A stretch of 64,000 nt of DNA from a bacterium (GCA_030427205.1 JAUHXC010000011.1:172016-236015), one strand, 5' to 3'. Counted from the first letter of the stretch, positions 5,654 through 33,966 are shown. The notes: generated by a model not told the origin, from the sequence alone. Numbers and translations are program-made.

Positions 5654-5816
5654 GGCAGAACCCCGGGCTGGTGGTCGAGCGCGGCGAGGATAGGGCAGCC
5701 GCCGACGACGGGGCAAGCGCAGCCGATCGGGTCTCTCGAGCCCCGCCCGCGGGAATACTTCACGGCGCACATGTATTCTGTTGTCCTACAGATTGATTTC
5801 GAGCTAGAGTCCCGCC

Positions 5817-7247
5817 GTGCTGACCTTGATCGCCACTGTGATGCTCGCCGCGAACCCGCCGCTCGACTGGCAGTTTCCCGGTATGTCCGGCCCCGACCTG
5901 CAGGCCGCGGTGCGCGCCGCCGCCGGCCCGCTGCCCCGGGGTCATCTCTTCGACGAGGCCGCCCGCGAGGCGCACCTGGCCGAGGTCCGCTGGACCGACG
6001 CGCTGGGCTGCCTGGCCGACGAGGCCGAATGCGCCGACGGGCGACGGGCGGTCTTCGCCGCGCTGCAGCTCGCCGGGCAGGTGGTCGCCGTCGCCACGTC
6101 CCAAGGCGCCGGCCACCGCGTCGTCTTGACCCTGCACGGGCTCGAATCCGCCGAGCCGCAGGTCTACAGCGGCACCGGGGCGACGCTCGACGAGGCGGCC
6201 AAGGCGGCCTACGCCGCGCTGCAGGGCCGGGTGACGCTGGTCTTGACCCTCGACCCGCCCGACGCCTCGATCCGGCTCGACGGCGAGGCGTTCGGCCAGG
6301 GGTCGGGCACCTACACCGTGCCGCCCGGCGATCACGACCTGACCTTCGAGGCCCCCGGGCGGCGCACTGTGAAGCAGCCGATCCGGGCCGACGCGGGCGA
6401 TACCCTCGAGATCGAGACCGTGCTGCCGGCGGCGGTGGGCCACCTCAGCCTGAAGGTCGAGCCGGCGAGCGCCACCGTCTTCCTCGACGGGGCCAAGTGG
6501 CCCGACCCGGGCACCGCCCGCGAGCTGTCGCCGGGGCCCCACGGGCTGCGCATCGAGGCCGAGGGCTACGAGACGTTCACCACCGAGGTGACCGTCAAGA
6601 GCGGCACGGTGCACGACCTGAACATGAAGCTGCGCCCCGAAGAACCCGACTGGCGCGAGGCGCTCTCCCGGCCGCACCCCGATACCCGCGCCCGCCCGTG
6701 GACGGTGCGCGCCGACCTGCGCCTGGGCTCGGCCCGGGACGGCGAGGTGGGGCTGGCTCTGCCCAACGGCGGCGAGCTGGTGAACCAGGACAACGCCATC
6801 GGTACGGTGGGGGTCGGCCTCTCGGTGGGCTGGCGCGGCGAGCACCTGCTCGTCGAGGGTCTGGGGCTGTCGTACGCCGCGGGCAGCGCGCAGACCGGCG
6901 CCACCTTCGAGAACCAGAGCACCGGCGACATCGACGCGCTCAGCCAGCTCACCCTGCGCCCGCTGTGGGTCGGGGCGCGCTACCCGTTCTGGCGCATCGA
7001 GCCCTACGCCCTCGCCGGCGTCGGCTTCGTCTGGGAGACCTTCGACGTCGACCGCCCCAGCGGCGCGCAGCAGGTCAGCGATACCCGCTTCCTGCTCGGC
7101 ACCGAGCTGGGCGTGCGCTACGCGTTCGACGACGCCTTGTCGGCGGGTATGGGCGCGGTGTTCGACTTCCTGCCCGGCGGCCGCGCCTCGGCGGCGTTCA
7201 TGGTGCAGGTGGGCTACGCCATCGACTTGCCGGAGCCATGGAAGTGA
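5817..7247 (+). CDS. outer-membrane protein: two PEGA-like domains fused to a C-terminal beta-barrel-like domain
   Basis: PEGA-like segments (TLVLTLDPPDASIRLDGEAFGQGSGTYTVPPGDHDLTFEA; HLSLKVEPASATVFLDGAKW...GPHGLRIEAEGYETF); C-terminal alternating hydrophobic strands ending ...GYAIDLPEPWK-like OM barrel. Confidence 0.5.
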   Translation: MLTLIATVMLAANPPLDWQFPGMSGPDLQAAVRAAAGPLPRGHLFDEAAREAHLAEVRWTDALGCLADEAECADGRRAVFAALQLAGQVVAVATSQGAGHRVVLTLHGLESAEPQVYSGTGATLDEAAKAAYAALQGRVTLVLTLDPPDASIRLDGEAFGQGSGTYTVPPGDHDLTFEAPGRRTVKQPIRADAGDTLEIETVLPAAVGHLSLKVEPASATVFLDGAKWPDPGTARELSPGPHGLRIEAEGYETFTTEVTVKSGTVHDLNMKLRPEEPDWREALSRPHPDTRARPWTVRADLRLGSARDGEVGLALPNGGELVNQDNAIGTVGVGLSVGWRGEHLLVEGLGLSYAAGSAQTGATFENQSTGDIDALSQLTLRPLWVGARYPFWRIEPYALAGVGFVWETFDVDRPSGAQQVSDTRFLLGTELGVRYAFDDALSAGMGAVFDFLPGGRASAAFMVQVGYAIDLPEPWK

Positions 7248-8503: not shown

Positions 8504-8623
8504 CGTGATTCGGGCGAGGCATGGTGTGTCTCGGGCGTGTCATTGCGCCAGGGCAGGGTGGGGGGTATCCTGCGCCCCTTCCCGCCGGGCGCGGGGCTCG
8601 ACGAATGTGAGGAACAGCCGGGG

Positions 8624-9460
8624 ATGAGCAAAACGAACCGCAAGGAAGTGCGCAAGAACGTGCCCCGGCTCGAGACCGCCGTGCCCGACTTCCGGCTGGT
8701 GGCCCACGGCGCCACCGACGTCGGCCGTCGGCGCGAGGTCAACGAAGACTCCTTCCTCATCCTGCCGCGCAATCACGTCTGGATCGTCGCCGACGGCATG
8801 GGCGGGCACGCGGGCGGTCAGGTGGCGAGCACGCTGACCATCGGCACGGTGGGCGACGCGCTCGTGCGCCGGCTCGCCGACGCCGAGGAGTCCGCCGAAG
8901 CGCCGCTCAACGTCGCCGCGCTCGTCGAGTCGTCGGTGCTCGAGGCGTGCCATACCGTCTTCGACACCGCCCGCGAGAACCCCGAGCTGACCGGTATGGG
9001 CAGCACGGTCACCGCGATGATGGTGCACGGCGCCGAGGCCTGGTTCGGCCACGTGGGCGACAGCCGGGCCTATCTGGTGCGCGAGGGCAAGATCCATCAG
9101 GTCACCGAAGACCACTCGCTGGTGCAGGAGCACGTGGCCGCGGGGCTCATCACCCCCGAGCAGGCGCGGGTCTCGGTCATCCGCAACATCATCACCCGCA
9201 GCATCGGCTTCGAGCGCGACGTCAAGGTCGACATCGGCGCGGTGCCGCTCGAGCGGGGCGACGTCTTCCTCCTGTGCTCCGACGGGCTGACCGGCCACGT
9301 CGAAGACCACGAGATCCTCGAGATCATCGAAGGCAACAAGCGCGGGGCGGTGCCCAAGATCCTCATCGACCTGGCCAACAGCCGGGGCGGCGAAGACAAC
9401 TGCACGGTGATCCTCGTCGCGGTCACCGGCCGCCGGGGCCGCAGCCGCAAGGCCAGCTGA
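8624..9460 (+). CDS. PP2C-family Ser/Thr protein phosphatase
   Basis: ATG 8624 after GAGGAA RBS; motifs ATDVGRRREVNEDS, ADGMGGHAGG, GDSRAYL, LCSDGL, GGEDNCTVIL typical of PPM/PP2C. Confidence 0.85.
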   Translation: MSKTNRKEVRKNVPRLETAVPDFRLVAHGATDVGRRREVNEDSFLILPRNHVWIVADGMGGHAGGQVASTLTIGTVGDALVRRLADAEESAEAPLNVAALVESSVLEACHTVFDTARENPELTGMGSTVTAMMVHGAEAWFGHVGDSRAYLVREGKIHQVTEDHSLVQEHVAAGLITPEQARVSVIRNIITRSIGFERDVKVDIGAVPLERGDVFLLCSDGLTGHVEDHEILEIIEGNKRGAVPKILIDLANSRGGEDNCTVILVAVTGRRGRSRKAS

Positions 9461-9472
9461 CCGCGCCCCGCG

Positions 9473-11008
9473 GTGAAGACCCCCGATCCCCGACCCACCC
9501 TCTCGGTCTGCCTCATCGTGCGCGACGAGGCCGCCATGCTCGGCCCGTGCCTCGAGAGCGTGAGCGCGCTCGCCGATCAGATCGTCGTCGTCGATACCGG
9601 CAGCGTCGACGCCACCGTCGACATCGCCCGGGCGCACGGGGCCGAGGTGCATCACTTCAGCTGGTGCGACGACTTCGCCGCCGCCCGCAACGCCAGCCTC
9701 TCCCATGCCCGCGGCGACTTCGTGCTGGTGCTCGACGCCGACGAGCGGCTGGCCCCCGACGCCGCCGACCGCATCCGGGCGGTGATGGCCGCCGAGCCGG
9801 CCGGGGCGCCGCCGACGGTGCACCTGCCGCTGATCGACAACCGCGACGCCGCCGGACAGGCCCTGGGCGCCGACTTCATGCCCCGCCTGTGGCGCAACCG
9901 CCCCGAGCTGCGCTTCACCGGGCGGGTCCACGAGCAGATCGGGGTCGGCGTCGGCGGCTTGCGGCAGGCGTTCGACGACCGCATCCGCATCATGCACCTG
10001 GGCTACGACCCGGATTACGCCGCCGAGCGCGGCAAACGGGCCCGCAACCGCGCGCTGCTCGAAGCCGAGCGGCGCGAACGCCCCGGCGACCCGACCATCG
10101 CCTTCTATCTGGCCAAGGAGGACTACGCCGAGGGCCGCGACGCCGAGGCTCTGGCCGGGTTTCGCCGGGCGATCGACGGCGCGGGGGCCAACCTGTCGCT
10201 GTCGGCGACGCTCTTCGCGGTCGAGTGCCTGCGCAACCTCGGCCGCCACGCCGACGGGGTGGCCCTGGCCCGCGCCGGCCTCGACCGGGCGCCGAGCTAT
10301 GGCGACCTGTGGTTCGTCGCCGGGCGGACGGCCCTCGAAGGCGGCGACCCGGAGACCGCGCTGACGCTGCTCGCCGAGGCCGGCCGCGCGCCCACGGGGC
10401 TGGCGGCCATCGCGTTTCGCGACCTGTCCGTCGGCGAGTGGCGCGCCGCGCTGACCACCGCCCGGGCCCACGCCGCCCGCGCCGGGCAACTCGACGGCGC
10501 GCGCCAGCCCGAAAGCGCCATCCAAGACCGCCGCGCGGCCGCCGCGATCTACTCCCGACTGCGTCGCCGACTGCCCGACGCCGAGCGCCTCGTCGCCGAT
10601 CTGGAGGCCGCCGAGCTGGCGGTGGCCCTGCGCGACCCCGAAGGCGCGTGGCGCCTGCTCGCGCCGACGCTCGACGCCGCGCCGGTCGACGGCGGCGAGA
10701 TCCTGCTCGGGCTGGTGCAGCTGGTCATCGAGCTCGCCGGCCTGCAGCCGGCCTACGGGCTGCTGGTCGACGCGCTCTCGGCCCACCCCGCGCTGCTGCA
10801 TCGGCTGCCGCTGGTGGGCGCCGCCGCCGAGCTGGCCGAGGCGCTGGGCGACGGCGCGCTGACCCAGTGGCTGCACATCTGCACTCTGCTCGACAGCCCG
10901 CATCCGGTGCACTACCGCGCCCTGGCCGACCTGCGCGACGCCGCCGGCGAGGCCGAAGAGGCCGCCCGGCTGCGGTCCCGCGCCGCGTCCCTCGACGACG
11001 CGCCGTAG
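9473..11008 (+). CDS. family-2 glycosyltransferase with C-terminal TPR-like region
   Basis: GTG start 13 bp after phosphatase stop; LSVCLIVRDEAAMLGPCLESV...VVVDTGSVD...VLVLDADERL (GT2 DxD fold) followed by helical repeat region. Confidence 0.7.
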   Translation: MKTPDPRPTLSVCLIVRDEAAMLGPCLESVSALADQIVVVDTGSVDATVDIARAHGAEVHHFSWCDDFAAARNASLSHARGDFVLVLDADERLAPDAADRIRAVMAAEPAGAPPTVHLPLIDNRDAAGQALGADFMPRLWRNRPELRFTGRVHEQIGVGVGGLRQAFDDRIRIMHLGYDPDYAAERGKRARNRALLEAERRERPGDPTIAFYLAKEDYAEGRDAEALAGFRRAIDGAGANLSLSATLFAVECLRNLGRHADGVALARAGLDRAPSYGDLWFVAGRTALEGGDPETALTLLAEAGRAPTGLAAIAFRDLSVGEWRAALTTARAHAARAGQLDGARQPESAIQDRRAAAAIYSRLRRRLPDAERLVADLEAAELAVALRDPEGAWRLLAPTLDAAPVDGGEILLGLVQLVIELAGLQPAYGLLVDALSAHPALLHRLPLVGAAAELAEALGDGALTQWLHICTLLDSPHPVHYRALADLRDAAGEAEEAARLRSRAASLDDAP

Positions 11009-11014
11009 CGGCGG

Positions 11015-11689
11015 CTACTCGGCGAGCTTGTAGCCCACCCCGCGCACCGTCTCGATGGTCTCCGCCGACAGCCCGGCGGCCACCAGCTTCTTGCGCAGCG
11101 TCTTGATGTGCACGTCGACCGTGCGCTCGGTCACCGCCACGTCCGGCCCCCAGGCCCGGTCGAGCAGCTGCCCGCGCTCGAAGACGCGGCCCGGCGCGCC
11201 GACGAAGACCGCCAGCAGGTCGAACTCGGTGCGCGACAGGCCCAGCTCGGTGCCTTCGGCCCACGCTTGGCGCTTCTCCGGATCGACCCGCAGCCGGGGC
11301 ACGCCGGTGGGCCCCGCCGGGCTCACCCGGCGCAAGACCGCGCGCACGCGGGCCACCATCTCCCGCGGTGAGAACGGCTTGTCCACGTAGTCGTCGGCCC
11401 CCAGCTCGAGCCCGACGATGTGCTCCACCGGGTCGTCGTGGCTCGACAGGATGATCACCGGGATGCGGTCGCCGTCGGCCCGGGCGCGCAGCCAGTCGAG
11501 GCCGTTGCCGTCGGGCAGCATCAGGTCGAGGATGACCAGCGCCGGCGGCGCCTGGGTCAGCGCGGCGTCGGCCTCGGCCAGGGTGCGGGCGGTGCGGGTC
11601 TCGAAGCCGGCGCGCCCGAGGGCATAGGCCAGGCTCTCGGTGATGGCCGGCTCGTCGTCGACGAGCAGGATCGTCTGGGGGGCGGGCAT
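11015..11689 (-). CDS. OmpR-family response regulator (receiver + winged-helix DNA-binding)
   Basis: ILLVDDEPAI...LVILDLMLPDGNGLD...RTVDVHIKTLRKKL...GVGYKL. Confidence 0.85.
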   Translation of the reverse strand: MPAPQTILLVDDEPAITESLAYALGRAGFETRTARTLAEADAALTQAPPALVILDLMLPDGNGLDWLRARADGDRIPVIILSSHDDPVEHIVGLELGADDYVDKPFSPREMVARVRAVLRRVSPAGPTGVPRLRVDPEKRQAWAEGTELGLSRTEFDLLAVFVGAPGRVFERGQLLDRAWGPDVAVTERTVDVHIKTLRKKLVAAGLSAETIETVRGVGYKLAE

Positions 11690-11725
11690 CGCGACTCCCG
11701 ACGCTCGGCGCGGTCGCCGGCCAGG

Positions 11726-12388
11726 TCAGCCGGCCGGGCTCGGCTCGGGGCCGGTCTCCATGTTCGCGCGCACGTTGCGGATGATGGTGCGGATCCTGTG
11801 CTGCCAGTTGTAGACCACCTGGGTGGTGACCTGCATCACCTCCGCGACATCGGCCGGCTTTCGCCCGTCGACGTAGATGTAGGTGAAGATGAGCTTGCCC
11901 CGCTCGGGCAGGGTGTCGATCAGCGCCGCCTTCAGCCGCCCGGCGAGCTCGCGGCTCATCGCCTGCGCCTCCGGGTCGGCGCCGCCGGAGAGCCCGTGCA
12001 GGTCGTCGAGGTTGGTCATGGTGACGTTGCCTCCGCTCTTCTGGGTCTCGGTCTTGATGCGCTCGCCGCGGGTCTTCGAGCGGGCGACGACGGTCACGTA
12101 GGCCTCCAGGTTGCCCCGCGTCGGGTCGAACTTGCGCAGCACCGCCGCGTCCTTGTCGAGGATGTGGGTCCAGACCTCCTGCACCAGATCGTCGCCGTCG
12201 TGCGCCCCGAGCGTGAAGCGGCCGCGCTTGCGCAGGGCGTAGCGCACGGTGCGCCGGATGATCGGCATCAGCCACTCGACGAGGTCGCGCATCGCCCGCC
12301 GGTCACCGCCGAGCGCCTTCTTCAAGAGATCAACGCCCGCGTCGACGGCCACCGACATGGCCACCGTCAGCAACCAGAAGCCATTCAT
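11726..12388 (-). CDS. ECF (sigma-70 family) RNA polymerase sigma factor
   Basis: Region 2 (DLVQEVWTHILDK) and region 4 HTH (IFTYIYVDGRKPADVAEVMQVTTQVVYNWQHRIR); start overlaps upstream anti-sigma stop (ATGA). Confidence 0.7.
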   Translation of the reverse strand: MNGFWLLTVAMSVAVDAGVDLLKKALGGDRRAMRDLVEWLMPIIRRTVRYALRKRGRFTLGAHDGDDLVQEVWTHILDKDAAVLRKFDPTRGNLEAYVTVVARSKTRGERIKTETQKSGGNVTMTNLDDLHGLSGGADPEAQAMSRELAGRLKAALIDTLPERGKLIFTYIYVDGRKPADVAEVMQVTTQVVYNWQHRIRTIIRNVRANMETGPEPSPAG

Positions 12389-13179
12389 TCGGACCCCTCC
12401 TTCCGGTCGACGTAGTCGAACTCGACCGCGTGCCAGCGTACGCCGCCCTCGTCTTCAGAGGTGGGTAGGGATTCGCCGGCGAGCCCTTGCAACTGCGCCT
12501 CGTCGAAGGCGAAGGCGACGTGCAGGCTGCGCTGACCGAGCCGGTCTCCGAGGATCCGGGTGATCGGCGCTTCGAGGGTCCACGCGCCGCCGGCACCGAA
12601 CTGCCCTTGCGCCTTCGAGAGTTCGAGCTTGCCGCCCTCATCGACGAAGGCCCGGGCGGTGATGGCCGCGTCTGCTTTGGCGTCGAGGTCCTCGCCGGGC
12701 TTGAGGATCACCGTCACCGTCGCCTCGTTGTCGACGCGATACGGTCCTCCGACGGACGGCCCGCGGAGCGGCGACTCGTCCCCGCGGACCAGCTTTTGGG
12801 CGCCGACGACGTCGAAGACCGCGTAGCCCGGCGGCGGATCGACCGTGGGCCGCATCACGAAGAAGGCCACCGCCGCCGCCAGGCTCAGCAGGGTCACCGT
12901 CGGGGCGATCCACCGCTTCGGGGGCCGCACCGCGCGGGTGCCGTGCTTGACCGCCCAGGCCTGTACGAACGCGCTCGGCGCGTCCTCGAACTCGTCGATG
13001 AAGGCCCGCGCCGCCGGATCGGCCGCCAGCATGACTTCGGCGCGGGCGGTCTCCACCTCGTCGAGCTCACCGGCGCGCCAGGCCATCAGGAGCGCCAGAT
13101 CGGCCTCCTCCTCGGGGGGGTCGAGCAGCGGCCCCAGGCCGCTGGCGAGGGCGTCGATGTCGTCGTCGCTGAGGGTCAT
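12385..13179 (-). CDS. putative transmembrane anti-sigma factor
   Basis: Cytoplasmic N-term (Glu/Asp-rich), single TM (WIAPTVTLLSLAAAVAFFVM), periplasmic C-term; 4-bp overlaps with CHAT gene upstream and sigma gene downstream. Confidence 0.5.
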   Translation of the reverse strand: MTLSDDDIDALASGLGPLLDPPEEEADLALLMAWRAGELDEVETARAEVMLAADPAARAFIDEFEDAPSAFVQAWAVKHGTRAVRPPKRWIAPTVTLLSLAAAVAFFVMRPTVDPPPGYAVFDVVGAQKLVRGDESPLRGPSVGGPYRVDNEATVTVILKPGEDLDAKADAAITARAFVDEGGKLELSKAQGQFGAGGAWTLEAPITRILGDRLGQRSLHVAFAFDEAQLQGLAGESLPTSEDEGGVRWHAVEFDYVDRKEGSE

Positions 13180-15995
13180 TGCGCTTCCTCACAGTGTCGC
13201 AGGGATCGTTCGGGTGGAATCGGGATGTGCGGCCGGCCGACGAGGCGCCAGTTGTTCCAGCTCTCGTTGCCTGCGTCGAGCAAGGCGCGGGTCGCCGCAC
13301 GCAGCGCCGGTCCCGGCCGATGGTCGCCGCCGTGCACGTAGAAGGCCTCGCTGAACAGCTTCGCGTGCTCGTCCCGCACTGGCCGATCGGTGGCGACGAC
13401 CGCGCCGCTGCCCGCCACGAGCAGCGCCTCGGGCAGTCCGAGCACGTCGTCGCGGGTCGACAGCGCGTCGGCGCCGGTCTGACAGCCGTTGAGCACGACC
13501 AGCCCGGCGACGGCCTGTTCGAGCCCGAGGATGTCGAAGACGTCAAAAGGCTTCTTGCCGGCCATGACCAGATGCGTCGACCAGGGGTGATCGGGGATCG
13601 ACTCGCCATGCCCCGAGAAGTGCACCAGCCGCGATGCCTTCAAGCTGCCTTCGAGCTTCGGGCCGGTCGCCGCCTCCCGGGCGAAGAGGCGCGAGCCGGG
13701 CAGGGTCCGCGCGAGCCACTCCCCCTCGGCGTAGGCATTGCCCAGCTCACTGGTCGGGTCGGCCAGGATCGTCGGTGGTCCGCACGGGATCTTGCGTTCG
13801 GCGACGAGCAGCTCGCCCGCCGGCAGCAGGGAGACCGAATACGGCCGATAGTTCGCCGCGCGGAAGGCGACCGCCACGACGTCCGGGTGGCCGCCCGCGA
13901 CCACATACAGATGCGCGGTGCTCCACGGCGGCGTGGGCAGGGTGTCGTCGTCGACGAATTCGGGCAGCGGGGTGGTCTCGTAGGCCGTCGCGCTGGCCCA
14001 CAGCGCGACCCGGCCGCCATCGCGCCGGGCCACCACCATGATGGTCTGCCCCGGCTCCAGCGCCGCCTGGACCTGCGCCGGGTCGACCCCGGTCAGCGGC
14101 AGCTCGGCGTCGAGGAAGTCGGCGACCGCCTTCACCGCAGCCCGCTGACGCGCCTCCGCCCTCTTCAGCTCGCGCTCCGATGCGCGCTGAGCCGCGCCCG
14201 CCGTGCGGCGAATCCGCTGCTTCAGGGCGCGGATCTCGTCGGCGATTTCGGCGATCCGCCCGCGCAGCCCACGCAAGACGTCGCGCTTGTCGGCGTCGAG
14301 GCTGTCGGCGAGTCGAGCGGCGAGCATCGTGCGCAGGACGCGGCCCTGGTTGCGGTCGGCCAGGGTGAACGCTCGCCGCAGGCTCCTCTGGTCGCCCCGC
14401 TCGATGGCCAGCGTCAACGAGGCGCGCAGCAGCTCGGCCCGGTCGTCGAGGAATCCGATCCGCTGCTCGAGCGGGTCCGTCAGCGCAGCCAGCCGCTTCA
14501 GCCGCGTCCGGGCTCGGGCGAAGTGCGTCTCGGCGGTCTGCAGATCACCGGCGGCGCGGGCCGCCTGTCCCAGCCCCAGCGCTGCCCGCCAGCCGTAGTC
14601 CCCGCCGTGAACTCCCCAGTGCGCCACCGCCGCCGCCTCGGCGGCCTCGAAGGGCGCCCGTGCCTCCGCCCAGCGCCCCTGAGCCAGCTCGAGCCGCCCC
14701 GTCAGCAGCGACGCGAACCCGCGGATCTCGTCGGCGGCGCTGCTCGCGAAGGGCGCGATCAACGCCGCCGCGGTCGACCAGTGTCCGTCGAGAAGCTCGA
14801 CGAGGGCCAGATTGAGCTGTACGTGGGCCCACGCGCTCGACCGGGTATCGGCCAGGAGGGCCGCCGCCTGCTCGAAGAGCCGACGGACCCGGCCGAAGTC
14901 ACGGGGGATCGCGCCGCGCTCCATGGCTTGCAGCAGGACGAAGCCGGCGTTGCTCGCGAAGCTCGCCCGGGTCTCGGGATCCAGCGTCGGGATGTCGACC
15001 AGCGGCTCGATCAGCTCGACCGCCGCCCGATGGTTGCCGAGGGACTGCGCCAGCGCCGCTCGGATCTGGCCCGTATTGGCCGCCAGCTCGTCCACGGCCG
15101 GACCGGCGCGCTTGATGAGGTCGGTCACGGCGACGGCCGCCGCGTGCGCTTCGCGCCAGCGCGCGGTGAGGTAGTACAGCTGCAGGGAGACATCGGTCAG
15201 GCGCAGGCGGGCCTCGGCGTCGAGCTCGGCGGCGATCGACCGCGCCTCGTCGAGGTACGCCGCGGCGGTGGTGAAGTCCGAGCGGACCAGCGCCCAGAAC
15301 GCCGCGGCGCACAACCGGCTCACCCGCTCCGACGGCACGCGCTGGCGCGCCGCCAGCTCGGCCGCGCGGACGTAGGCCGCCTCGCTGACCCGGCGGTGAT
15401 CTTCATCCGGGCCGCAGAGGCTCTTCGCCTTGTTCGCCGCCAGGAGGGTCGCCCACAACGCCACCTCGTCTTCGCTCTGTCGATCGACGATGGTCGCGAT
15501 CTCGGTCTCGCTCGCGCAGCGCGCGGCCTCGTCTTCGGGGTCGCCCTCGACCTCCGCGGCCAGCGTCACGATCCGGGCCACCGCCGGCAGCTGCTTGGGT
15601 GGCCTGCGCCATTCGGCCGGCCAGCGGGCCACGGTGAAGCCCGCCTGGCGCAGCTGCAGCTCGCCGGGGCTGAGGGGCGGATCGTTCTCGACGACGAGGA
15701 AGTTCATCTCACCCCTCGCCTCGGTCCGATGATCCAGCGGGAAGATACGGCCGTCGGCGTCCACCCAGCGCAGCGCCAGCCCGAGCGGGCTCGGCACCCG
15801 AACGATCGGCCGCTGCTCGTCGTCGAACCAGCGGACCGGCCGGCCGTCGCGCAGGGCGATCGCCCGCCGGCCGTGCAGCTCGACGTCGGGCATCGGTCGC
15901 TGCGCCGCGGCCGATGCGCTCGGCTCTTCGGCAGCGGAGACGCCGCCCAGGACGATGGCGACCAGCCAGAGAGCATGCAGTGGGGCACAACGCAT
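13176..15995 (-). CDS. secreted TPR-repeat protein with C-terminal CHAT (caspase-like) protease domain
   Basis: Signal peptide MRCAPLHALWLVAIVLGGVSAAEE; long helical TPR-like region; C-terminal VHFSGHG ... LVVLNGCQTG His/Cys dyad arrangement of CHAT domains. Confidence 0.65.
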   Translation of the reverse strand: MRCAPLHALWLVAIVLGGVSAAEEPSASAAAQRPMPDVELHGRRAIALRDGRPVRWFDDEQRPIVRVPSPLGLALRWVDADGRIFPLDHRTEARGEMNFLVVENDPPLSPGELQLRQAGFTVARWPAEWRRPPKQLPAVARIVTLAAEVEGDPEDEAARCASETEIATIVDRQSEDEVALWATLLAANKAKSLCGPDEDHRRVSEAAYVRAAELAARQRVPSERVSRLCAAAFWALVRSDFTTAAAYLDEARSIAAELDAEARLRLTDVSLQLYYLTARWREAHAAAVAVTDLIKRAGPAVDELAANTGQIRAALAQSLGNHRAAVELIEPLVDIPTLDPETRASFASNAGFVLLQAMERGAIPRDFGRVRRLFEQAAALLADTRSSAWAHVQLNLALVELLDGHWSTAAALIAPFASSAADEIRGFASLLTGRLELAQGRWAEARAPFEAAEAAAVAHWGVHGGDYGWRAALGLGQAARAAGDLQTAETHFARARTRLKRLAALTDPLEQRIGFLDDRAELLRASLTLAIERGDQRSLRRAFTLADRNQGRVLRTMLAARLADSLDADKRDVLRGLRGRIAEIADEIRALKQRIRRTAGAAQRASERELKRAEARQRAAVKAVADFLDAELPLTGVDPAQVQAALEPGQTIMVVARRDGGRVALWASATAYETTPLPEFVDDDTLPTPPWSTAHLYVVAGGHPDVVAVAFRAANYRPYSVSLLPAGELLVAERKIPCGPPTILADPTSELGNAYAEGEWLARTLPGSRLFAREAATGPKLEGSLKASRLVHFSGHGESIPDHPWSTHLVMAGKKPFDVFDILGLEQAVAGLVVLNGCQTGADALSTRDDVLGLPEALLVAGSGAVVATDRPVRDEHAKLFSEAFYVHGGDHRPGPALRAATRALLDAGNESWNNWRLVGRPHIPIPPERSLRHCEEAQ

Positions 15996-16084
15996 CGTCT
16001 GGTGCTACGTGAGCCGACGCGACGTGTCCAGGGATCGGGGTGTTTCATGGGTCTATCAACCACTTACGGCCGGCTCGATACCGC

Positions 16085-17233
16085 TCAGAACCACGGCGAC
16101 GCGGCGGCCGCCGCCGAGCCCACCGCGAGGCTCGCGGCCACGGCGGACGCGCTCAGGAGCCAGCGGGACCGCCGGCGGCTGCGCTCGCCCGGCGCGCGAC
16201 TGCGCCGGACCGAGCCGGTGCCGTCGCCGCCGTCCCGGGCCCGCTCGGCCTCGTGCTCGGCGAAGCGCGCCAGCAGCTCGGCGCTCGGCGGGTCGATGAG
16301 CGTATCGTCCTCGCCGCCGAAGAGCCCGGTCAGCTCGGCGAGCGCGGCGCTCATCGCCCGCGGGTCGGCGAACCGCGAGCTGGGGGACTTGGCCATCGCC
16401 CGGGTGATGACCGCGCTCAGCTCGCCGGTGGGGTCGACCTCCAGCGGCAGCCGCGGCACCGGATCGACCGCGTGGCCGAGCAATACGGTCTCGAGCGTGC
16501 CGCGGAAGGGCGCGTGGCCGGCGAGCATCTCGAAGAGCACGACGCCGAGCGAGTACTGGTCGGCCGCCGGGCCCACCGGCAGCTCGGCCAGCGGCTCGGG
16601 GGCCATGTACAGCGGGCTGCCGAGCATCCAGCCGGCCTGGGTCAGGTCTTCGTCGTCGTCGTCGAAGCCGTCCTCGCGCCGGGCGAGGCCGAAGTCGATG
16701 AGGGTCACCTGCTCGTGCCCGAAGCCATCCCGCCGCAGCAGGATGTGGGCCGGCTTGATGTCCCGGTGCACCACGCCGTGGCGGTGGGCGACGGCGAGGG
16801 CGTCGAGCACCTGCCGGGCGATGTCGAGCGCCCGCGCCGGCGCCAGGGCGCCCTCGGTGTCGATCACCCGCTCCAGCGAGGTGCCCTCGACGAGCTCTTC
16901 GACGATGTACAGCCCGCCCGACTCGGGGCCCTCGTCACGCAGGGTGCCATAGCGCAGGAGCCCGACGATCGACGGGTGGTCGAGCAGCTCGAGGGCCCGC
17001 ACCTCGCGCAGGAAGCGCATGCGGTGCTGCATGTCGTGGGCGTTGGGGCCGGTCAGCAGCTTGACCGCCACCGACCGGCCCGATGGCCGTTGCTCTGCGC
17101 GGTAGACGGTGCCTTGCACCCCGGCCCCGAGGCGCTCGACCAGGTCGAACTCACCGGCGATGGTCCGGCCGATCCAGGGATCGACGGTCTCGGCGGCGTT
17201 CGGGGCGGCGACGGCGGGGTCGGAGTGGCGCAT
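16085..17233 (-). CDS. Hanks-type Ser/Thr protein kinase with C-terminal TM segment
   Basis: Internal start MRHSDPAV (cat 17231..17233); GAGVQGTVY, AVK, HRDIKPAHILL, DFGLAR, APE motifs; C-term RWLLSASAVAASLAVGSAAAA; track ORF extended upstream through non-proteinlike sequence. Confidence 0.85.
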   Translation of the reverse strand: MRHSDPAVAAPNAAETVDPWIGRTIAGEFDLVERLGAGVQGTVYRAEQRPSGRSVAVKLLTGPNAHDMQHRMRFLREVRALELLDHPSIVGLLRYGTLRDEGPESGGLYIVEELVEGTSLERVIDTEGALAPARALDIARQVLDALAVAHRHGVVHRDIKPAHILLRRDGFGHEQVTLIDFGLARREDGFDDDDEDLTQAGWMLGSPLYMAPEPLAELPVGPAADQYSLGVVLFEMLAGHAPFRGTLETVLLGHAVDPVPRLPLEVDPTGELSAVITRAMAKSPSSRFADPRAMSAALAELTGLFGGEDDTLIDPPSAELLARFAEHEAERARDGGDGTGSVRRSRAPGERSRRRSRWLLSASAVAASLAVGSAAAAASPWF

Positions 17234-17410
17234 GATGACCTCGGGGGCGGAGGGTTCGTCGAGATCTAGGGCGGGCGACGGATTTTCTTTCGTTGGCGGG
17301 CCATGATTTTTCGATCGAGATATCGGGGGCCTTTCCGATCGGCCCCGGCGGTTGTCGCCGGGCGACGCCGATGCCAAGATGCGGCCACGACAACCCACGG
17401 GAGCCCTCTG

Positions 17411-17899
17411 ATGCGTATCGTCCTGCTGTCCCTCACGATGCTCGCCCTCGCCGTCGCCTGCGGTCCCAACCCCGAGCCCAAGCCCGACGCGCCGGCGGAG
17501 GCCACGAGCAGTGACCCCCGGCCGATCATCATCACCTGCGGCTCGTGCCGGGTGGAGGTCTGCTACGACACCGCCAACCCCGAGCGGCTCGGCAACGTCA
17601 AGCTCGACCTGCGGCCGACCGCCGACGGCGAGCCGCTCGTCGGCGACTGGCAGGCGGCGCTGCTCGAGCTCGAGCCCCCGTCGGGCGGCGCGCAGGGCCT
17701 CGCGCTCAAGACCGACGCCTGGAAGGACAGCGGCCCGATCCTGGCCTCGGTGAAGGACCCCAAGCTGCAGCCGGTCTCCGGCGGCTGGGCCAAGGCCAAG
17801 GCCACGCTGACCCTCACCTGGAAGGACGGCAAGCAGGTCCGCTCGCACAAGTTCACCGCCAAGGACGGCCTGCGGGTCAACGTCATGTCCTGCAAGTAG
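17411..17899 (+). CDS. hypothetical lipoprotein
   Basis: MRIVLLSLTMLALAVACG lipobox; ATG 17411. Confidence 0.45.
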   Translation: MRIVLLSLTMLALAVACGPNPEPKPDAPAEATSSDPRPIIITCGSCRVEVCYDTANPERLGNVKLDLRPTADGEPLVGDWQAALLELEPPSGGAQGLALKTDAWKDSGPILASVKDPKLQPVSGGWAKAKATLTLTWKDGKQVRSHKFTAKDGLRVNVMSCK

Positions 17900-18072
17900 G
17901 AGTCTGTAGTGCATAGCCCGACACATCGCCCAGCACGGTCCCGTTCACCGATTTCGGTGTCGTCAGGCGCTCGACATACGTCGAGTATCTCTGCGGCCCT
18001 CCTCCTTGAACTCGGCGAACGGCCCCGCACCGGGCTCGGTCGTCTACGCCCTACAGCCTCCTAGTCCGGCCC

Positions 18073-19560
18073 GTGTCGCACCACCCTCAATCGGCGGCGG
18101 TGGTGGTCGGCGTCGACCACTACCCCGACCCGGCCATCGCCGATCTGCGCGGCGCGGTGGCCGACGGCCGGGCCATGGCCCGGCTGCTCGTCGAACACTT
18201 CGGCTTCGCGCCCGATCGCGTCGTGACCCTCTTCGACGAACGGGCGACCGCCGCCCGCATCGAAGGGGCCGTCGACTGGCTGGCGCGCACCGTCGGCCCG
18301 GAGGGCGCGGCGGTCTTCTTCTTCGCCGGGCACGGGGCGCAGCGCTTCGACGACTCGGGGGACGAGTCCGACGACTTCGACGAGACCTTCGTGCCCCACG
18401 ACAGCGGCCGCGGCGCGCGGCCCGATCGCGACCTGACCGACGACTGGATGCGCGTCCGGCTCGAGCGGCTCGCCAAGCGGGCGGCGAGCGTCACCGCCAT
18501 ATTCGACTGCTGTCACTCGGGCACCATGGGCCGGGCGGAGGGCTACACCGGCGTGCGTGGGGCCGCGCCGGTCAAGGGCCCGCGGCGCGCCCGCGGACCG
18601 GCCCTGCGCCGCGCCGGCGGCGACCTGCCCTATGTGCTGCTCGCGGCGGCCGCCGCCGACGAGGCGGCCCACGAGAAGACCGTCGGCGAGAAGCCGCAGG
18701 GGGTCTTCACCCGGGCGCTGGTCGGCGCGCTGGCGGCGAGCACGGCCCGGGACTCGTGGCGCACCCTCATCGCCCGGGTCGCCGACGACGTCGGCCGGGC
18801 GCAGGCCGAGGGGCAGCGGCAGACCCCGCAGCTCGAAGGCGCCCATCGCGATCGACGGCCGTTCTCCACCGCGCAGCCCGAGGCGCGCTGGGCGCCGGCC
18901 GAGGCCGACGGTGGGGGCATCGCGGTGGCCCTCGGCGCGCTGCACGGCGTCGCGATGGATACGGTGCTGACCATCGAGCCCATCGGGGGGCAGACAGGCC
19001 CGCTGAACGCCCGGGTGGTCGATCTGGGGCCGTTCTCGTGCCGCTGCGTACCGCTGGACGGGCGAGCGGTCGACGGGCCGCTGCGGGCCTTCCCGCCGCC
19101 CCAGCGGCCGTCTCTCTGGGATCTGACCGCCGATCCGACCTATGCCGCCGACCCGTTCGACCTCGTCTTCGACGCCAGCGGGCTCGTCGACGACGACGGG
19201 GCGCAGGTGGTGCACGCGGGCGACGCGCTGACGCTGACCTTCGACAATACCGGCAACCGGCGGGTGCACGTCGCGCTGGCGGCGATCGACGTCGACGGCC
19301 GGGTGCGGGTGCTGGCGCCCGAGCCGGGCGGCGAGATGCAGATCGCGCCCTTCGGCCGCCACGCCGAGATCATCGAAGCCGAGCTGCCCCGCGAGCGCCC
19401 GGGCGGCATGCGCTGGCGGCTGGTGCTCGTCGTCAGCAGCGCGCGCTTCGACGCCGGCCTGCTCGAGACCGCGGCGCGTACGATCATCCCCCCGATAAAG
19501 AATCTGCTGCTGGCGCTCTATCCCATGGTGGTGCGGGTGCTGCCCCCGCCCGAGCGCTGA
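18073..19560 (+). CDS. caspase-family (peptidase C14) protein with C-terminal beta-rich domain
   Basis: Caspase His/Cys dyad FFFAGHGAQ ... AIFDCCHSGT; GTG start as in ORF track (no good SD, start uncertain). Confidence 0.7.
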   Translation: MSHHPQSAAVVVGVDHYPDPAIADLRGAVADGRAMARLLVEHFGFAPDRVVTLFDERATAARIEGAVDWLARTVGPEGAAVFFFAGHGAQRFDDSGDESDDFDETFVPHDSGRGARPDRDLTDDWMRVRLERLAKRAASVTAIFDCCHSGTMGRAEGYTGVRGAAPVKGPRRARGPALRRAGGDLPYVLLAAAAADEAAHEKTVGEKPQGVFTRALVGALAASTARDSWRTLIARVADDVGRAQAEGQRQTPQLEGAHRDRRPFSTAQPEARWAPAEADGGGIAVALGALHGVAMDTVLTIEPIGGQTGPLNARVVDLGPFSCRCVPLDGRAVDGPLRAFPPPQRPSLWDLTADPTYAADPFDLVFDASGLVDDDGAQVVHAGDALTLTFDNTGNRRVHVALAAIDVDGRVRVLAPEPGGEMQIAPFGRHAEIIEAELPRERPGGMRWRLVLVVSSARFDAGLLETAARTIIPPIKNLLLALYPMVVRVLPPPER

Positions 19561-19575
19561 GCCACCGGAGACGTC

Positions 19576-21960
19576 ATGCCCGAAGAGAGACAGCGCGCCG
19601 AGGCCGGCGCGAAGCCCGATGAGTCCCGCGCCGGCTGGCGGGCCCTCATTGTCGGCATCGACCGCTTCGCCCGGGTCGGCGGTCTGCAGGGCGCCGCCCA
19701 GGACGCCGCGCAGGCCGAGGCGTTCGCCCGCGAGGGCCTGCGCATCCCGCCCGAGAACATCACCGTGCTCACCAACGAGGCGGCCACCCGCGAGGCGGTG
19801 ATCGCGGCCCTGCGCGCGCTCGGCGACGCCGAGCTGACCGCCGACGATCAGGTGTTCGTGCACATCTCCAGCCACGGCACCCGCATGCTCGACCCGCTCG
19901 ACCAGAGCCCCAGCGGCTTCATCGAGTGCCTGGTGGTCTACGACAGCGGCCCGGGCGGCGCGTGGCACATCCCCGACCTGACCATGGGCGCGCTTTTCGA
20001 CCGCGTCACCCGCAAGACCGAGCGGCTGACGGTGGTGATCGACACCTGCCACTCGGGCTCGGCCACCCGCAGCAACGTGCGGCTGACGAACACCGACAAG
20101 CGCTCGCCGCCGGCCGACCTCGACGCACACATCCGCGCCGAGGGCTCCGGCGTCCTCGACGGCACCATGCGCTATGTGGTGCTCGCCGCCTGCCAGGACC
20201 GGGAGCTGGCCTTCGAACACCACGAGCGGGTCGGCGACCAGACGATCGTCTCGGGGCTCTTCTCACGCTTCCTCTATCCCGCGCTGCGCGCGGCGCGCAG
20301 CGACACCTCGTACCGCATGCTGATGGAGCGGGTGGCGGTGCAGGTCAGCGGCCGGCAGAGCCAGCACCCGCTCTGCGAGGGCCGCGCCGATCGGGCGATC
20401 TTCGGCGGGGCCGACGTGCGGGTCGACCGCTTCTTGACGGTGGTCGGCGAGCGCATCGGCAGCGTCGCCATCGACGGCGGCACGCTGCACGGGCTGCGGC
20501 CGGGCGACCGCGTGGCGTTCTACGGGCCCGAGCTGCGCACGCTGGACCAGCTGAAGGCCGGCGCCGACGACGTACCGGTCGAGCCGCTGGCCATCGGTAC
20601 GCTCACCGCGGTGGACAGCACCCGCAGCAGCGCGCGTATCGAGCCGCCGCCCGAAGGCCGGCCGGCGCCCGAGAGCCTGATGTTCGCCCGCGTATTGCGC
20701 GAAGGGCCGCTGACCGATGGCGGCACCGTGCGCTTCGAGGTCGAGCCCGGGGCCCGGCCGCTCGGCAAGCCGCCGCACTACATCCAGTGGCGGCTGGCCG
20801 AGCCGGGCGAGGTGCCCGACACCGTGGTGAAGGTGGGGCACACGCAGATCGAGCTGCTCGACGCCGCCGGCCACCAGCGGGTCTCGCCGCAGCCCCGCTC
20901 GGGCGAGATCTGGGACAGCATCTCGATCATCGCCCGGGTCGATCGGCTCAAGCGCCTGCGCAACCCCGACCGCGGCTCGCTGCTGCAGGACGGCTTCGAG
21001 ATTCGGGTGCGGCGGCTGGTCGACGATCACGACGCCCGCAAGAGCCCGGTGATCGAGCCGACGCGGGGGCGCGTCGTGCTGCCCTACGATCCTGGCGCGC
21101 CGACGACCTGGTACATGACCGAGCTGATCAACCGCACGACCCGCACCGCGCGGCCGCATCTGCTGCTGCTCAACGCCGACTACAGCGTCGTGCCGCTGCT
21201 CTCGCAAGCCTCGGGCGCGCGCGCGGTGGACGACGGACGGGCTGTCTTCGTCGGCCATCGAGACCAGTCCCAGCGCTTCGCCGCGTTTCTGCCCGGCGAC
21301 GTACCCGGCGACGCATGGTGGGTCCGGGCCGACAATACCTTGCTGCTGCTGGCGAGCCGGCGACCGATCAACGTCGACCTGCTCCGCCAGGGCGGGATCC
21401 GCAGCCAGCCGCCCCAGGGCCGCACCCCCGAGCGCGACAGCCTGACGAACCTGCTCGCCGACTGCGCCGCCGGCCGACGCATGCTGCGTCGACGAGCGCC
21501 GGAGGACTGGGGCGCCCAGCACTTTCAGATCACGGTGCTGCGCCGCCCCGCCGAGGTGCGTCCGGTCGGCGCGGGCGCGCTGCCCATCGGCCTCGGCTTC
21601 GACGCCGCCGGCATCGAGGGCACCCTCTGCGCCGCCGAGTTCGACCGGATGGCGCTCTTCACCCCGCTCGACCGCCCGCCGCTGGAGTCCTTGTCCGTCG
21701 CCGGCCTCGAGCCGGTGCTCTCACCCGCCCGCGGGTCGGGCACCTCGCCGCTGGTGGTGCGCGTCGTCGGCAAGGCGGCCCCCGGGGCGAAGCTGACCCT
21801 GAAGGTGCCCACCGAAGATCAGCCGCTGGTGCCGGTGGCCTTCGATCGCGCGGGCCATACCGTCGTCGGTCGACCGGGCGGGCCCGGCGAGGCCGTCTTC
21901 GACCTGCCTACGGCCTTCGACCGCCCGTTCCTGCTGGCCCGCCCCCGCTCGAGCTCATGA
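19576..21960 (+). CDS. caspase-family (peptidase C14) protein, large, paralog of upstream gene
   Basis: VFVHISSHGTRM ... VVIDTCHSGSA dyad; post-caspase segment GSVAIDGGTLHGLRPGDRVAF parallels GIAVALGALHGVAMDTVLTI of the upstream protein. Confidence 0.7.
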   Translation: MPEERQRAEAGAKPDESRAGWRALIVGIDRFARVGGLQGAAQDAAQAEAFAREGLRIPPENITVLTNEAATREAVIAALRALGDAELTADDQVFVHISSHGTRMLDPLDQSPSGFIECLVVYDSGPGGAWHIPDLTMGALFDRVTRKTERLTVVIDTCHSGSATRSNVRLTNTDKRSPPADLDAHIRAEGSGVLDGTMRYVVLAACQDRELAFEHHERVGDQTIVSGLFSRFLYPALRAARSDTSYRMLMERVAVQVSGRQSQHPLCEGRADRAIFGGADVRVDRFLTVVGERIGSVAIDGGTLHGLRPGDRVAFYGPELRTLDQLKAGADDVPVEPLAIGTLTAVDSTRSSARIEPPPEGRPAPESLMFARVLREGPLTDGGTVRFEVEPGARPLGKPPHYIQWRLAEPGEVPDTVVKVGHTQIELLDAAGHQRVSPQPRSGEIWDSISIIARVDRLKRLRNPDRGSLLQDGFEIRVRRLVDDHDARKSPVIEPTRGRVVLPYDPGAPTTWYMTELINRTTRTARPHLLLLNADYSVVPLLSQASGARAVDDGRAVFVGHRDQSQRFAAFLPGDVPGDAWWVRADNTLLLLASRRPINVDLLRQGGIRSQPPQGRTPERDSLTNLLADCAAGRRMLRRRAPEDWGAQHFQITVLRRPAEVRPVGAGALPIGLGFDAAGIEGTLCAAEFDRMALFTPLDRPPLESLSVAGLEPVLSPARGSGTSPLVVRVVGKAAPGAKLTLKVPTEDQPLVPVAFDRAGHTVVGRPGGPGEAVFDLPTAFDRPFLLARPRSSS

Positions 21961-23584: not shown

Positions 23585-23613
23585 TTGACTCCACGGTGCT
23601 GCGGCCCTACACT
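23585..23613 (+). promoter_or_regulatory. sigma-70-like promoter upstream of ffh (TTGACT-N17-TACACT)
   Basis: ttgact 23585..23590, 17-nt spacer, tacact 23608..23613; about 57 nt upstream of ffh ATG. Confidence 0.4.
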
Positions 23614-23669
23614 CCCATGCCCCTCGTCCGGCCCCTTCCGGCCGGGCGCCACTCCAGCCGGGACGTCCG

Positions 23670-25366
<1,697 letters not shown>

Positions 25367-25370
<4 letters not shown>

Positions 25371-31304: not shown

Positions 31305-31380
31305 GCCGACATAGCTCAGCTGGTAGAGCAGCTCACTCGTAATGAGCAGGTCGTCGGTTCAAGTCCGACTGTCGGCTCCA
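31305..31380 (+). tRNA. tRNA-Thr (anticodon CGT)
   Basis: Cloverleaf by hand: acceptor gccgaca/tgtcggc, D arm gctc-agctggta-gagc, anticodon stem gctca/tgagc with loop ctCGTaa, T arm gtcgg-ttcaagt-ccgac, encoded CCA. Confidence 0.85.
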
Positions 31381-31402
31381 ACCCCATCCGCCGCACCATC
31401 CG

Positions 31403-32296
31403 ATGATTCGACCCCGAGAGCCATCGAACGCGACCGCCCGGCGGCCGCGTATGGGGTCGATCTGTCCGCGCGGCCGGGGTCCCGGTGCAGCGCTCGGCCC
31501 GCTGCTGGGCGCCGCCCTGGCGCTGCTCGTCGCGCTGCCCGCCGTCGCCGCGCCCCCCGGGCTGCGGCTGGTCGTCATCGACCCGGGCCACGGCGGCACC
31601 AACCTCGGGGCGCCCTCCCGGGTGCACCACCCGGTGCGTTACGAGAAGGAGTTCACCCTCAAGGTCGCCCGCAAGGTCGCCGCCCGCCTGCGCGAAGCGG
31701 GGGTGACGGTGGTCATGACCCGCGAGCGCGACCGCGACATGTCGCTCAAGGCCCGCATCAGCCTCGCCAACCGCCTGCGGGCCGACGCCTTCGTCAGCAT
31801 CCACCTCAACGCCACCGAGGTGCCCGGCCCCACCGGCCACGAGACGTTCTTCCTCGCGCTCGAGGCCACCGACGAGGCGGCGAAGCGGCTGGCCACGTTC
31901 GAGAACCGCGACCCGGTCGCCGTCGAGGGCGACGCCACCGCGCCGGTGCCCGACGACGCGGTGGGCGACATCCTGCTCGACCTCACCCGCGAGCGGGCCC
32001 ACCACGACGCGCAGCGGCTCGCCGAGCTGATCCAGCGGCGGCTGACCCCGCAGAGCCCGTTCAAGAACCGGGGGGTCAAGCAGGCCCCCTTCTTCGTGCT
32101 GATGGGGGCCGCCATGCCGGCGGTCGTCACCGAGATCGGCTTCATCAACCACCGCGCCGAAGGGCGCTACATCACCAGCGAGAAGGGCATGTCGGCCATC
32201 GCCGAGGGCATCGCCGAGGGCATCCTCGACTACGGTCGACTCGTCAACGCCCCGCGCAGCCGCCCCGCCTCGCCCCCGACCCCAGGAGACCCATGA
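31403..32296 (+). CDS. N-acetylmuramoyl-L-alanine amidase (amidase_3 family)
   Basis: VVIDPGHGG ... FVSIHLNA ... GHETFFL motifs; signal peptide; alternative start at 31451 possible. Confidence 0.8.
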   Translation: MIRPREPSNATARRPRMGSICPRGRGPGAALGPLLGAALALLVALPAVAAPPGLRLVVIDPGHGGTNLGAPSRVHHPVRYEKEFTLKVARKVAARLREAGVTVVMTRERDRDMSLKARISLANRLRADAFVSIHLNATEVPGPTGHETFFLALEATDEAAKRLATFENRDPVAVEGDATAPVPDDAVGDILLDLTRERAHHDAQRLAELIQRRLTPQSPFKNRGVKQAPFFVLMGAAMPAVVTEIGFINHRAEGRYITSEKGMSAIAEGIAEGILDYGRLVNAPRSRPASPPTPGDP

Positions 32297-33659: not shown

Positions 33660-33682
33660 CGGCGGGGGGGTCGATGTATAGC
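33656..33682 (+). promoter_or_regulatory. possible promoter for tRNA cluster (TTGACG-N15-TATAGC)
   Basis: ttgacg 33656..33661 (overlaps rdgB stop), tatagc 33677..33682; spacer shorter than optimal. Confidence 0.25.
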
Positions 33683-33707
33683 CTTCCGCGTCTCCGAGTC
33701 CCCCGGA

Positions 33708-33787
<80 letters not shown>

Positions 33788-33960: not shown

Positions 33961-33966
33961 CCGTGT

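Follow-up and report, generated by a model that had tools for sequence, protein, structure and literature searches.

A 64,000-nucleotide stretch of bacterial DNA (GCA_030427205.1 JAUHXC010000011.1:172016-236015, referred to hereafter as the window) carries on its minus strand, between positions 11,015 and 17,233, a group of five genes in which a predicted periplasmic protease of the caspase superfamily, an anti-sigma factor and a sigma factor of the extracytoplasmic function (ECF) type are encoded in tandem. The locus is real and conserved, and it is wider than first described. Its wiring is of a known sort, and is new in that the protease and the anti-sigma factor are separate polypeptides whose genes stand in reversed order. 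Our interpretation is that the protease, which combines tetratricopeptide repeats with a CHAT domain (TPR-CHAT), forms a three-protein unit across the inner membrane with the anti-sigma factor and the sigma factor, and that the catalytic dyad of the CHAT domain makes the site-1 cut in the anti-sigma factor. We would place the probability of this reading at about 0.5.

The surrounding DNA is 70-77% G+C and crowded with spurious open reading frames (ORFs). All five minus-strand ORFs reported in a preliminary description of the window were recovered at the same coordinates (Table 1), and their G+C pattern by codon position is that of real genes. Identical translations of all five proteins are already present in the public protein collection (NCBI record), so the ORF boundaries agree with existing gene calls. 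Searches with hidden Markov models (HMMs) from Pfam and NCBIfam upheld the earlier domain assignments for the kinase, the CHAT protein, the sigma factor and the OmpR-type regulator. Direct reading of the sequence confirmed the two reported ATGA overlaps, at 13176-13179 between the CHAT and anti-sigma genes and at 12385-12388 between the anti-sigma and sigma genes, each of which is preceded by a Shine-Dalgarno-like run. The two wider gaps needed correction: the sigma and regulator genes are separated by 36 nt rather than 37, and the kinase and CHAT genes by 89 nt rather than 90.

The CHAT protein consists of a signal peptide (residues ~1-21), an N-terminal segment (~22-130), a helical TPR superhelix (~133-645) and a CHAT caspase-fold domain (~650-930). 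The repeats are weak in Pfam and the superhelix is that of the predicted structural model. Both motifs on which the protease assignment had been based, VHFSGHG and NGCQTG, are present and supply His796 and Cys838. Within HF[SA]GHG and GC[QE]TG these residues were invariant in seven family members, down to 25% identity; in an alignment of 31 CHAT sequences Cys838 was invariant and His796 was conserved at a level of at least 90%. The model predicts a caspase-like fold with a dyad in the order His then Cys, as is characteristic of CHAT and clan CD proteases. Among known CHAT proteins, a profile search reached only the CHAT protein of craspase (~1e-04), with the catalytic His and Cys aligned. A word-indexed homologue search with the CHAT protein returned two full-length relatives and no more, and the sole match in a scan of genome contigs was an unrelated Omnitrophota CHAT domain.

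The N-terminus of the CHAT protein, MRCAPLHALWLVAIVLGGVSA/AEEP (the slash marks the predicted cleavage site), resembles a Sec signal peptide in its charge, its hydrophobic core and its pattern of small residues at the cleavage site, in agreement with the export signal proposed earlier, and its Kyte-Doolittle value over residues 1-22 is 1.83. Every CHAT orthologue appears to carry some export signal, the sequence of which is not kept. Sec signal peptides were recognized in the CHAT proteins of the window and of the related loci L002 (...GGPSYA/EP) and L005 (...VPAAFA/QPE, with the start corrected to 5916), lipoboxes in those of L018 and L020 (LVSC and LVAC), and a hydrophobic N-terminal anchor in those of L003, L009, L011 and L012. 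Judged by these signals the CHAT protein is exported, and its TPR-CHAT portion is predicted to be periplasmic. The N-terminal segment of about 100 residues is conserved yet modelled at a predicted local distance difference test score (pLDDT) below 50, as would be expected if it folds upon a partner.

Searches with a single sequence revealed almost nothing about the 264-residue product of the next gene: Pfam and NCBIfam gave chance-level matches only (MLTR_LBD 0.0029; anti-sigmaE 0.015), phmmer against the PDB returned ankyrin noise, and family profiles were therefore needed. A profile built from 12 relatives and searched exhaustively found 1425 cluster representatives at E<=1e-3, or 298 with the limit set at E<=1e-10. 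Lengths of 188-308 residues were seen for all of the 150 best-scoring relatives listed, most of which matched over their full length. The zinc-binding anti-sigma domain of Pfam, zf-HC2, was matched by 37 of 113 aligned relatives (best 5.8e-09), and a profile of the 113 sequences matched the solved anti-sigma factors RslA (3HUG_B, 4.5e-05) and ChrR (7.9e-04) over residues 24-70. The assignment of this protein as an anti-sigma factor is thus borne out by homology, beyond gene position. The ligands of the [H/C]...H-x3-C-x2-C type are found in about 40% of the alignment (H/C/C columns in 45 of the 113 relatives). The window protein has E25, M50, D54 and A57 in these columns and lacks the zinc-binding anti-sigma (ZAS) motif, so that its anti-sigma domain is of the kind that does without zinc, like those of RseA and MucA.

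As had been described, the anti-sigma factor has one transmembrane (TM) segment and a periplasmic domain. The TM scan put the segment at residues 90-113, with R/K on its N-terminal side; in the AlphaFold model, residues 25-78 contain helices, 93-108 form a TM helix and 119-257 an immunoglobulin (Ig)-like beta-sandwich (pLDDT ~90), the structural neighbours of which are only generic. A single TM segment, a cytoplasmic N-terminus and co-transcription with the sigma gene, which the anti-sigma gene overlaps, are features of class I. We regard the protein as a class I anti-sigma factor of the non-zinc kind that carries an Ig-like domain in the periplasm and is predicted to bind the sigma factor. 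It also contains a K-L-x-R motif (window 12700-12790, minus strand) whose arginine, R132, is at least 90% conserved in the 113 relatives and adjoins a low-confidence loop (residues 135-143) of the periplasmic domain. Speculatively, this motif and the N-terminal segment of the CHAT protein may be contact or cleavage elements.

The sigma factor matched Sigma70_r2 (8.5e-07), Sigma70_r4_2 (2.1e-06) and TIGR02937 (58 bits, cutoff 42.9), which places it among the ECF sigma factors. It shows weak similarity to ECF families of the Planctomycete type, and its orthologues are matched by the Sigma70_ECF model. Region 2 keeps an acidic DGDD, for which orthologues have DxDD or QQED. The protein opens with a hydrophobic stretch, MNGFWLLTVAMSVAV (residues 1-22, window 12320-12388, minus strand; Kyte-Doolittle 1.7 over residues 4-22). 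Most sigma factors of both locus types described below begin with 12-20 hydrophobic residues, whose character is kept while their sequence is not; the stretch is absent in L018. It may act as a membrane or partner-docking peptide.

To follow the linkage of these genes, locus contexts were taken from relatives of the CHAT and anti-sigma proteins and from metagenomes scanned with the sigma alignment as seed, and were annotated uniformly with our own HMMs; the sampled relative loci are from high-GC metagenomes. A CHAT gene of the same family and orientation accompanied the anti-sigma gene in 13 of 13 distinct informative anti-sigma loci. It lay directly upstream in 12 of the 13, usually with a 4-nt overlap, and this overlap persists where the proteins share just 25-45% identity; in L017 the genes run sigma, anti-sigma, S8, CHAT. 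Each of the 10 loci with sufficient sequence to judge had a sigma factor of one orthologous family, at 35-62% identity across both locus types. On the sigma side the exceptions were L019, with the CHAT gene on the opposite strand, and L021, with the sigma gene alone. The preliminary description had made its proposal depend on the alignment of the His/Cys pair with the caspase fold, on a signal peptide and on adjacency of the CHAT, anti-sigma and sigma genes, and each of these was found.

Loci of type A (window, L002, L005, L006-8 and L013/14) contain genes for the kinase, CHAT protein, anti-sigma factor, sigma factor and regulator, in that order. Those extending upstream (window, L005 and L013) also carry a divergent lipoprotein gene and two Peptidase_C14 genes, and L006 shares the convergent family-2 glycosyltransferase (GT2) and PP2C genes of the window. 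Loci of type B (L003, L009/10, L011, L012, L015/16, L018 and L020) contain genes for the CHAT protein, the anti-sigma factor, a large S8 subtilase-like lipoprotein and the sigma factor, again in that order; the regulator is absent and the kinase usually absent. The S8 subtilase is encoded in eight distinct loci, namely those of type B and L017. These lipoproteins are 750-1170 residues long, some have TSP3 or MopE-like repeats, and their genes are translationally coupled to those for the anti-sigma and sigma factors. L015 also has another S8 gene downstream, and a kinase-FGE-sulfatase fusion is encoded there divergently. The kinase and regulator, which had been proposed as further control layers, are lineage-specific accessories rather than core components; relatives carry an S8 subtilase instead. 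The original set of five genes stands, but it missed conserved partners outside it (the divergent lipoprotein, the two C14 caspases and the PP2C phosphatase). On the identities listed in Table 1, the exported parts of the module appear to be those that evolve fastest.

Table 1. Features of the locus, numbered from the first nucleotide of the window, with protein identity to the related loci L005/L006
Feature	Position	Strand	Evidence or remark	Identity
PP2C-type Ser/Thr phosphatase	8537..9460	+	PP2C_2 2.8e-16; likely kinase partner	90% (L006)
Family-2 glycosyltransferase with TPR tail (GT2)	9473..11008	+	Glycos_transf_2 4.1e-19; link to module uncertain	77% (L006)
OmpR/PhoB-type response regulator, 224 aa	11015..11689	-	Response_reg 9.9e-23, Trans_reg_C 8.4e-25	92-93%
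ECF sigma factor, 220 aa, hydrophobic N-terminal extension	11726..12388	-	Pfam r2 and r4_2, TIGR02937	59-61%
Class I anti-sigma factor, zinc ligands lost, 264 aa	12385..13179	-	Family-profile homology, TM scan, predicted model	43-45%
TPR-CHAT cysteine protease, predicted to be exported, 939 aa	13176..15995	-	Pfam CHAT 7.7e-25, residues 719-910	41-44%
Promoter-like TGGACA-N16-GTAG (= GGAC-N17-CGTA)	16005..16030	-	Ends 9 nt before the CHAT ATG	
Hanks-type Ser/Thr kinase, tail-anchored, 382 aa	16085..17233	-	Pkinase 9.5e-45; identity from L005	65%
Small cysteine-rich probable lipoprotein, ~162 aa (MRIVLLSLTMLALAVAC...), first divergent gene	17411..17899	+	No Pfam match; present in L013	43% (L005)
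Cytoplasmic Peptidase_C14 protein (C14a), 495 aa	18073..19560	+	Peptidase_C14 1.3e-24; AGHG / DCCHSG dyad intact	58% (L005)
Second cytoplasmic Peptidase_C14 protein (C14b), 794 aa	19576..21960	+	Peptidase_C14 6.1e-14; SSHG / DTCHSG dyad intact	41% (L005)

The kinase and CHAT genes flank the promoter-like element of Table 1. Its sequence, TGGACA-N16-GTAG, has a single match in the 64-kb window, against 0.04 matches expected by chance, and one in each of L002, L005 and L013 at the equivalent position; L015 has GGAAC-N17-CGTAC upstream of its CHAT gene. A promoter shared by type A and type B loci could not be aligned convincingly. In its GGAC-N17-CGTA form the window element resembles ECF promoters, of which those of Myxococcus xanthus share AAc...cGT (PMC6061681), and the element is possibly a promoter that depends on the ECF sigma factor itself. 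Because the conserved motif separates the kinase and CHAT genes, the operon probably begins at CHAT. The likely transcript contains the CHAT, anti-sigma and sigma genes and probably the regulator gene, which follows the short sigma-regulator gap with no terminator; searches for intrinsic terminators and sigma-70 consensus promoters within the operon found none. The kinase gene would be transcribed separately or additionally. Of the five-gene operon first envisaged, the close, co-directional arrangement holds and the single unit starting at the kinase is doubtful.

In the mechanism that we favor, translational coupling would ensure that TPR-CHAT, the anti-sigma factor and the sigma factor are made in fixed proportion. 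At rest, the N-terminal helical domain of the anti-sigma factor would hold the sigma factor, and TPR-CHAT would be docked, in a latent state, on the periplasmic domain of the anti-sigma factor. A cue from the periplasm, probably some protein or peptide that the TPR superhelix binds, would activate the His796/Cys838 dyad, which would then clip the periplasmic part of the anti-sigma factor (site-1 cleavage). An RseP-type site-2 protease and cytoplasmic proteases would clear the remainder and free the sigma factor, which might act at the GGAC-N17-CGTA element upstream of CHAT to re-induce its own operon, so that the co-transcribed OmpR-type regulator would also rise. To this presumed core the lineage of the window adds the tail-anchored kinase, PP2C, the divergent lipoprotein and the two C14 caspases, where other lineages have the S8 subtilase lipoprotein instead.

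The preliminary description was aware of no established family with such wiring, but there are precedents in DdvA/DdvS of M. xanthus (PMC11506125, PMC6061681) and in ECF54 neighbourhoods (PMC8999054). In DdvA a single chain joins an anti-sigma domain of the zinc type to a TM helix and, in the periplasm, a scaffold-TPR-CHAT region; the partner of DdvA is the sigma factor DdvS (PMC11506125, PMC6061681). DdvA has been proposed to be its own site-1 protease, cutting itself in trans before RseP acts; removal of TPR-CHAT makes it an RseP substrate, while cleavage by CHAT was not observed and dyad mutants were silent at rest (PMC11506125). The window system resembles DdvA in that a TPR-CHAT portion, by prediction periplasmic, is tied to an anti-sigma factor. 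It differs in that DdvA is one polypeptide and the window has two genes (264 aa and 939 aa), in that the window anti-sigma factor has its own Ig-like periplasmic domain, and in that the zinc ligands present in DdvA are lost. The order CHAT, anti-sigma, sigma is the reverse of ddvS-ddvA and is also not what splitting ddvA would yield. Neither single sequences nor family profiles matched DdvA or DdvS, the anti-sigma profile giving E 0.89 against the N-terminal domain of DdvA. The likeness of the CHAT proteins is structural only, the predicted fold of the window protein being nearer to craspase and separase than to DdvA. In the window family an exported TPR-CHAT protein seems to have been recruited into ECF signalling independently, and no description of a separate periplasmic TPR-CHAT protein paired with an anti-sigma factor was found in the literature searched.

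This separation bears on the proposal made for DdvA. A role of CHAT as site-1 protease is unproven for DdvA because the trigger is unknown and because protease and substrate are one chain; in the window family they are separate proteins, and the site-1 hypothesis becomes testable in trans. The anti-sigma family is not rare, as judged by the number of its cluster representatives at E<=1e-10, and a CHAT partner was present in every informative locus sampled. The sampled anti-sigma family members have no functional name or Pfam annotation. Cleavage by CHAT, if correct, would be a form of ECF control that is widespread yet unannotated. That the module recurs beside S8 subtilases or cytoplasmic C14 caspases further hints that bacteria use several proteases together in signalling.

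Other known systems share parts of this arrangement. ECF54 neighbourhoods of Actinobacteria conserve carboxypeptidase, subtilase and CHAT genes, and proteolytic control has been proposed for them (PMC8999054; PMC7826278). The likeness is one of gene context only, an ECF sigma factor with CHAT and, in the subtilase-type relatives, an S8 subtilase; ECF54 was described without an anti-sigma factor, whereas the window family has a clear one. The TPR-CHAT protein of craspase (Csx29) and separase are cytoplasmic or nuclear and are activated by an RNA-guided Cas7-11 complex and controlled by securin and Cdk, respectively, whereas the window CHAT protein is predicted to be exported and is linked to an anti-sigma factor. 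As in the RseA/DegS/RseP pathway, a single-pass class I anti-sigma factor presumably loses its periplasmic part to a site-1 protease. That pathway uses a PDZ serine protease, and the candidate in the window is a caspase-fold cysteine protease that is encoded in the operon and translationally coupled.

Several points weigh against CHAT as the site-1 protease. The S8 subtilase in the operon of most relatives could be the real one. The gene order, with CHAT before the anti-sigma gene and sigma last, is atypical for sigma/anti-sigma pairs. Cleavage by CHAT is undemonstrated even for DdvA, whose dyad mutants were like the wild type under the conditions tested (PMC11506125). The promoter motif agrees with TTGACA in 5 of 6 positions and could belong to a housekeeping promoter, and no target genes bearing the motif were found elsewhere in the window, where the looser GGAC-N16-18-CGTA gave no further intergenic sites.

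If CHAT does not make the cut, it might be a co-sensor or shield on the Ig-like domain of the anti-sigma factor, much as RseB is on RseA, to be released by a ligand bound to the TPR. The site-1 cut would then fall to the S8 subtilase in relatives and to a housekeeping protease in the window, with the dyad acting elsewhere or on CHAT itself. The number of distinct loci that encode an S8 subtilase is consistent with this, as is the translational coupling, which suggests a stoichiometric complex; the bulky TPR-CHAT of DdvA sterically blocks RseP, and the DdvA dyad mutants had no phenotype at rest (PMC11506125). We nevertheless consider it unlikely, because the dyad is strictly conserved across family members with as little as 25% identity, suggesting that catalysis matters, and because loci of the window type have no S8 gene.

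Somewhat less likely still is that the system produces CHAT as its output, in the form of an envelope protease with other periplasmic targets (the divergent lipoprotein, or surface or invader proteins), while the anti-sigma factor senses alone. Effectors are often encoded in ECF operons, induction from the promoter-like element upstream of CHAT would raise CHAT along with sigma, and a conserved cysteine-rich lipoprotein is encoded nearby. A 4-nt overlap between an effector gene and the anti-sigma gene, however, seldom survives such divergence; CHAT is the most constant linked gene of the anti-sigma gene in the family, and the DdvA fusion argues for a regulatory role of TPR-CHAT.

Control mainly by phosphorylation appears very unlikely. 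Here the Hanks kinase, with PP2C acting against it, would activate the sigma factor directly, as in ECF43-like systems (EcfP/PknT, EcfK/PknS), or would phosphorylate the orphan OmpR regulator, with CHAT and the anti-sigma factor secondary. The kinase gene does adjoin CHAT in all four distinct type A loci that extend upstream of CHAT (window, L002, L005 and L013), the PP2C gene is syntenic in L006, and several ECF groups are linked to kinases (PMC7826278, PMC8999054); the weak likeness of the sigma factor to Planctomycete-type families points the same way. But orthologous sigma factors in subtilase-type loci have no adjacent kinase, the kinase itself has no extracytoplasmic domain, and the promoter-like element separates it from the operon. 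In ECF43 sigma factors the acidic DAED motif of region 2.2 is replaced by Ser/Thr (STTA) and phosphorylation by the kinase is needed (PMC8999054). The window resembles these systems in that a Hanks kinase gene adjoins an ECF sigma operon and departs from them in that the sigma factor keeps DGDD (DxDD in orthologues) where ECF43 has STTA. In addition, a bona fide anti-sigma factor is present, whereas kinase-linked ECF groups typically have none; both features make direct ECF43-like activation unlikely, and an ECF43-style phospho-switch was rejected on account of the retained acidic motif.

A long shot is a cascade spanning compartments, in which periplasmic TPR-CHAT would sense an envelope or invader cue and cut the anti-sigma factor in trans, and the sigma factor, kinase/PP2C and orphan regulator would together control the C14 caspases; if true, this would be a pathway from an extracellular trigger to executioner caspases, for example in abortive infection or in developmental cell death of a multicellular-type bacterium.

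The kinase contains readable HRDIKPAH and DFG motifs, as expected of a Hanks-type enzyme, and is found only in type A loci, next to CHAT. Its TM segment (residues 359-377) is followed by just 5 residues (window 16085-16160, minus strand), as it is in L002 and L005. There is thus no extracytoplasmic sensor domain, and the kinase would not sense the periplasm directly. The receiver residues of the regulator are canonical (D11/D12/D54/S82/K104), consistent with the OmpR/PhoB type; neither the PhoB nor the CreB equivalog model reaches its cutoff. A histidine kinase was not seen in the annotated part of the locus (8537-21960), and the Hanks kinase and PP2C may plausibly cross-talk to the regulator. 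The PP2C and GT2 genes run convergently toward the regulator gene; L013 has ppk (polyphosphate kinase) where the window has GT2.

The divergent operon (17411-21960) is syntenic in L005 and L013. Both C14 proteins have long C-terminal regions that lack a Pfam match. With CHAT and the two C14 proteins, the locus encodes three caspase-superfamily proteases. In the intergenic region between the kinase and lipoprotein genes (17234-17410), blocks conserved in three loci are GCCGCATCTTGGCAC, GAAAGA and CCTAG...GAAC. The CATCTTGGCAC block in this region resembles the -24 box of sigma-54 promoters, though conservation does not extend to a -12 element.

Defence genes are found near some DdvA-like pairs only (PMC11506125). 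A reading of the window locus as a defence island was rejected, as the PADLOC matches (PD-T4-6 kinase, 'caspase') are due to no more than generic domains. Neither CBASS nor CRISPR genes were found nearby, the neighbours being PP2C, GT2, the C14 caspases, Ffh and others, and the antiphage-island setting of the DdvA type was not seen. Megablast against plasmids returned nothing relevant. The flanks of the module contain a PEGA-domain/outer-membrane beta-barrel protein gene (5808-7247, plus strand) and the gene for the signal recognition particle protein Ffh (23589-25370, plus strand). These are ordinary chromosomal neighbours and suggest that the module sits in the core chromosome and not in any obvious mobile element. 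Further along the plus strand are ten tRNA genes (31305-34550 and 40581-40856), seven of which are tightly clustered at 33708-34550.

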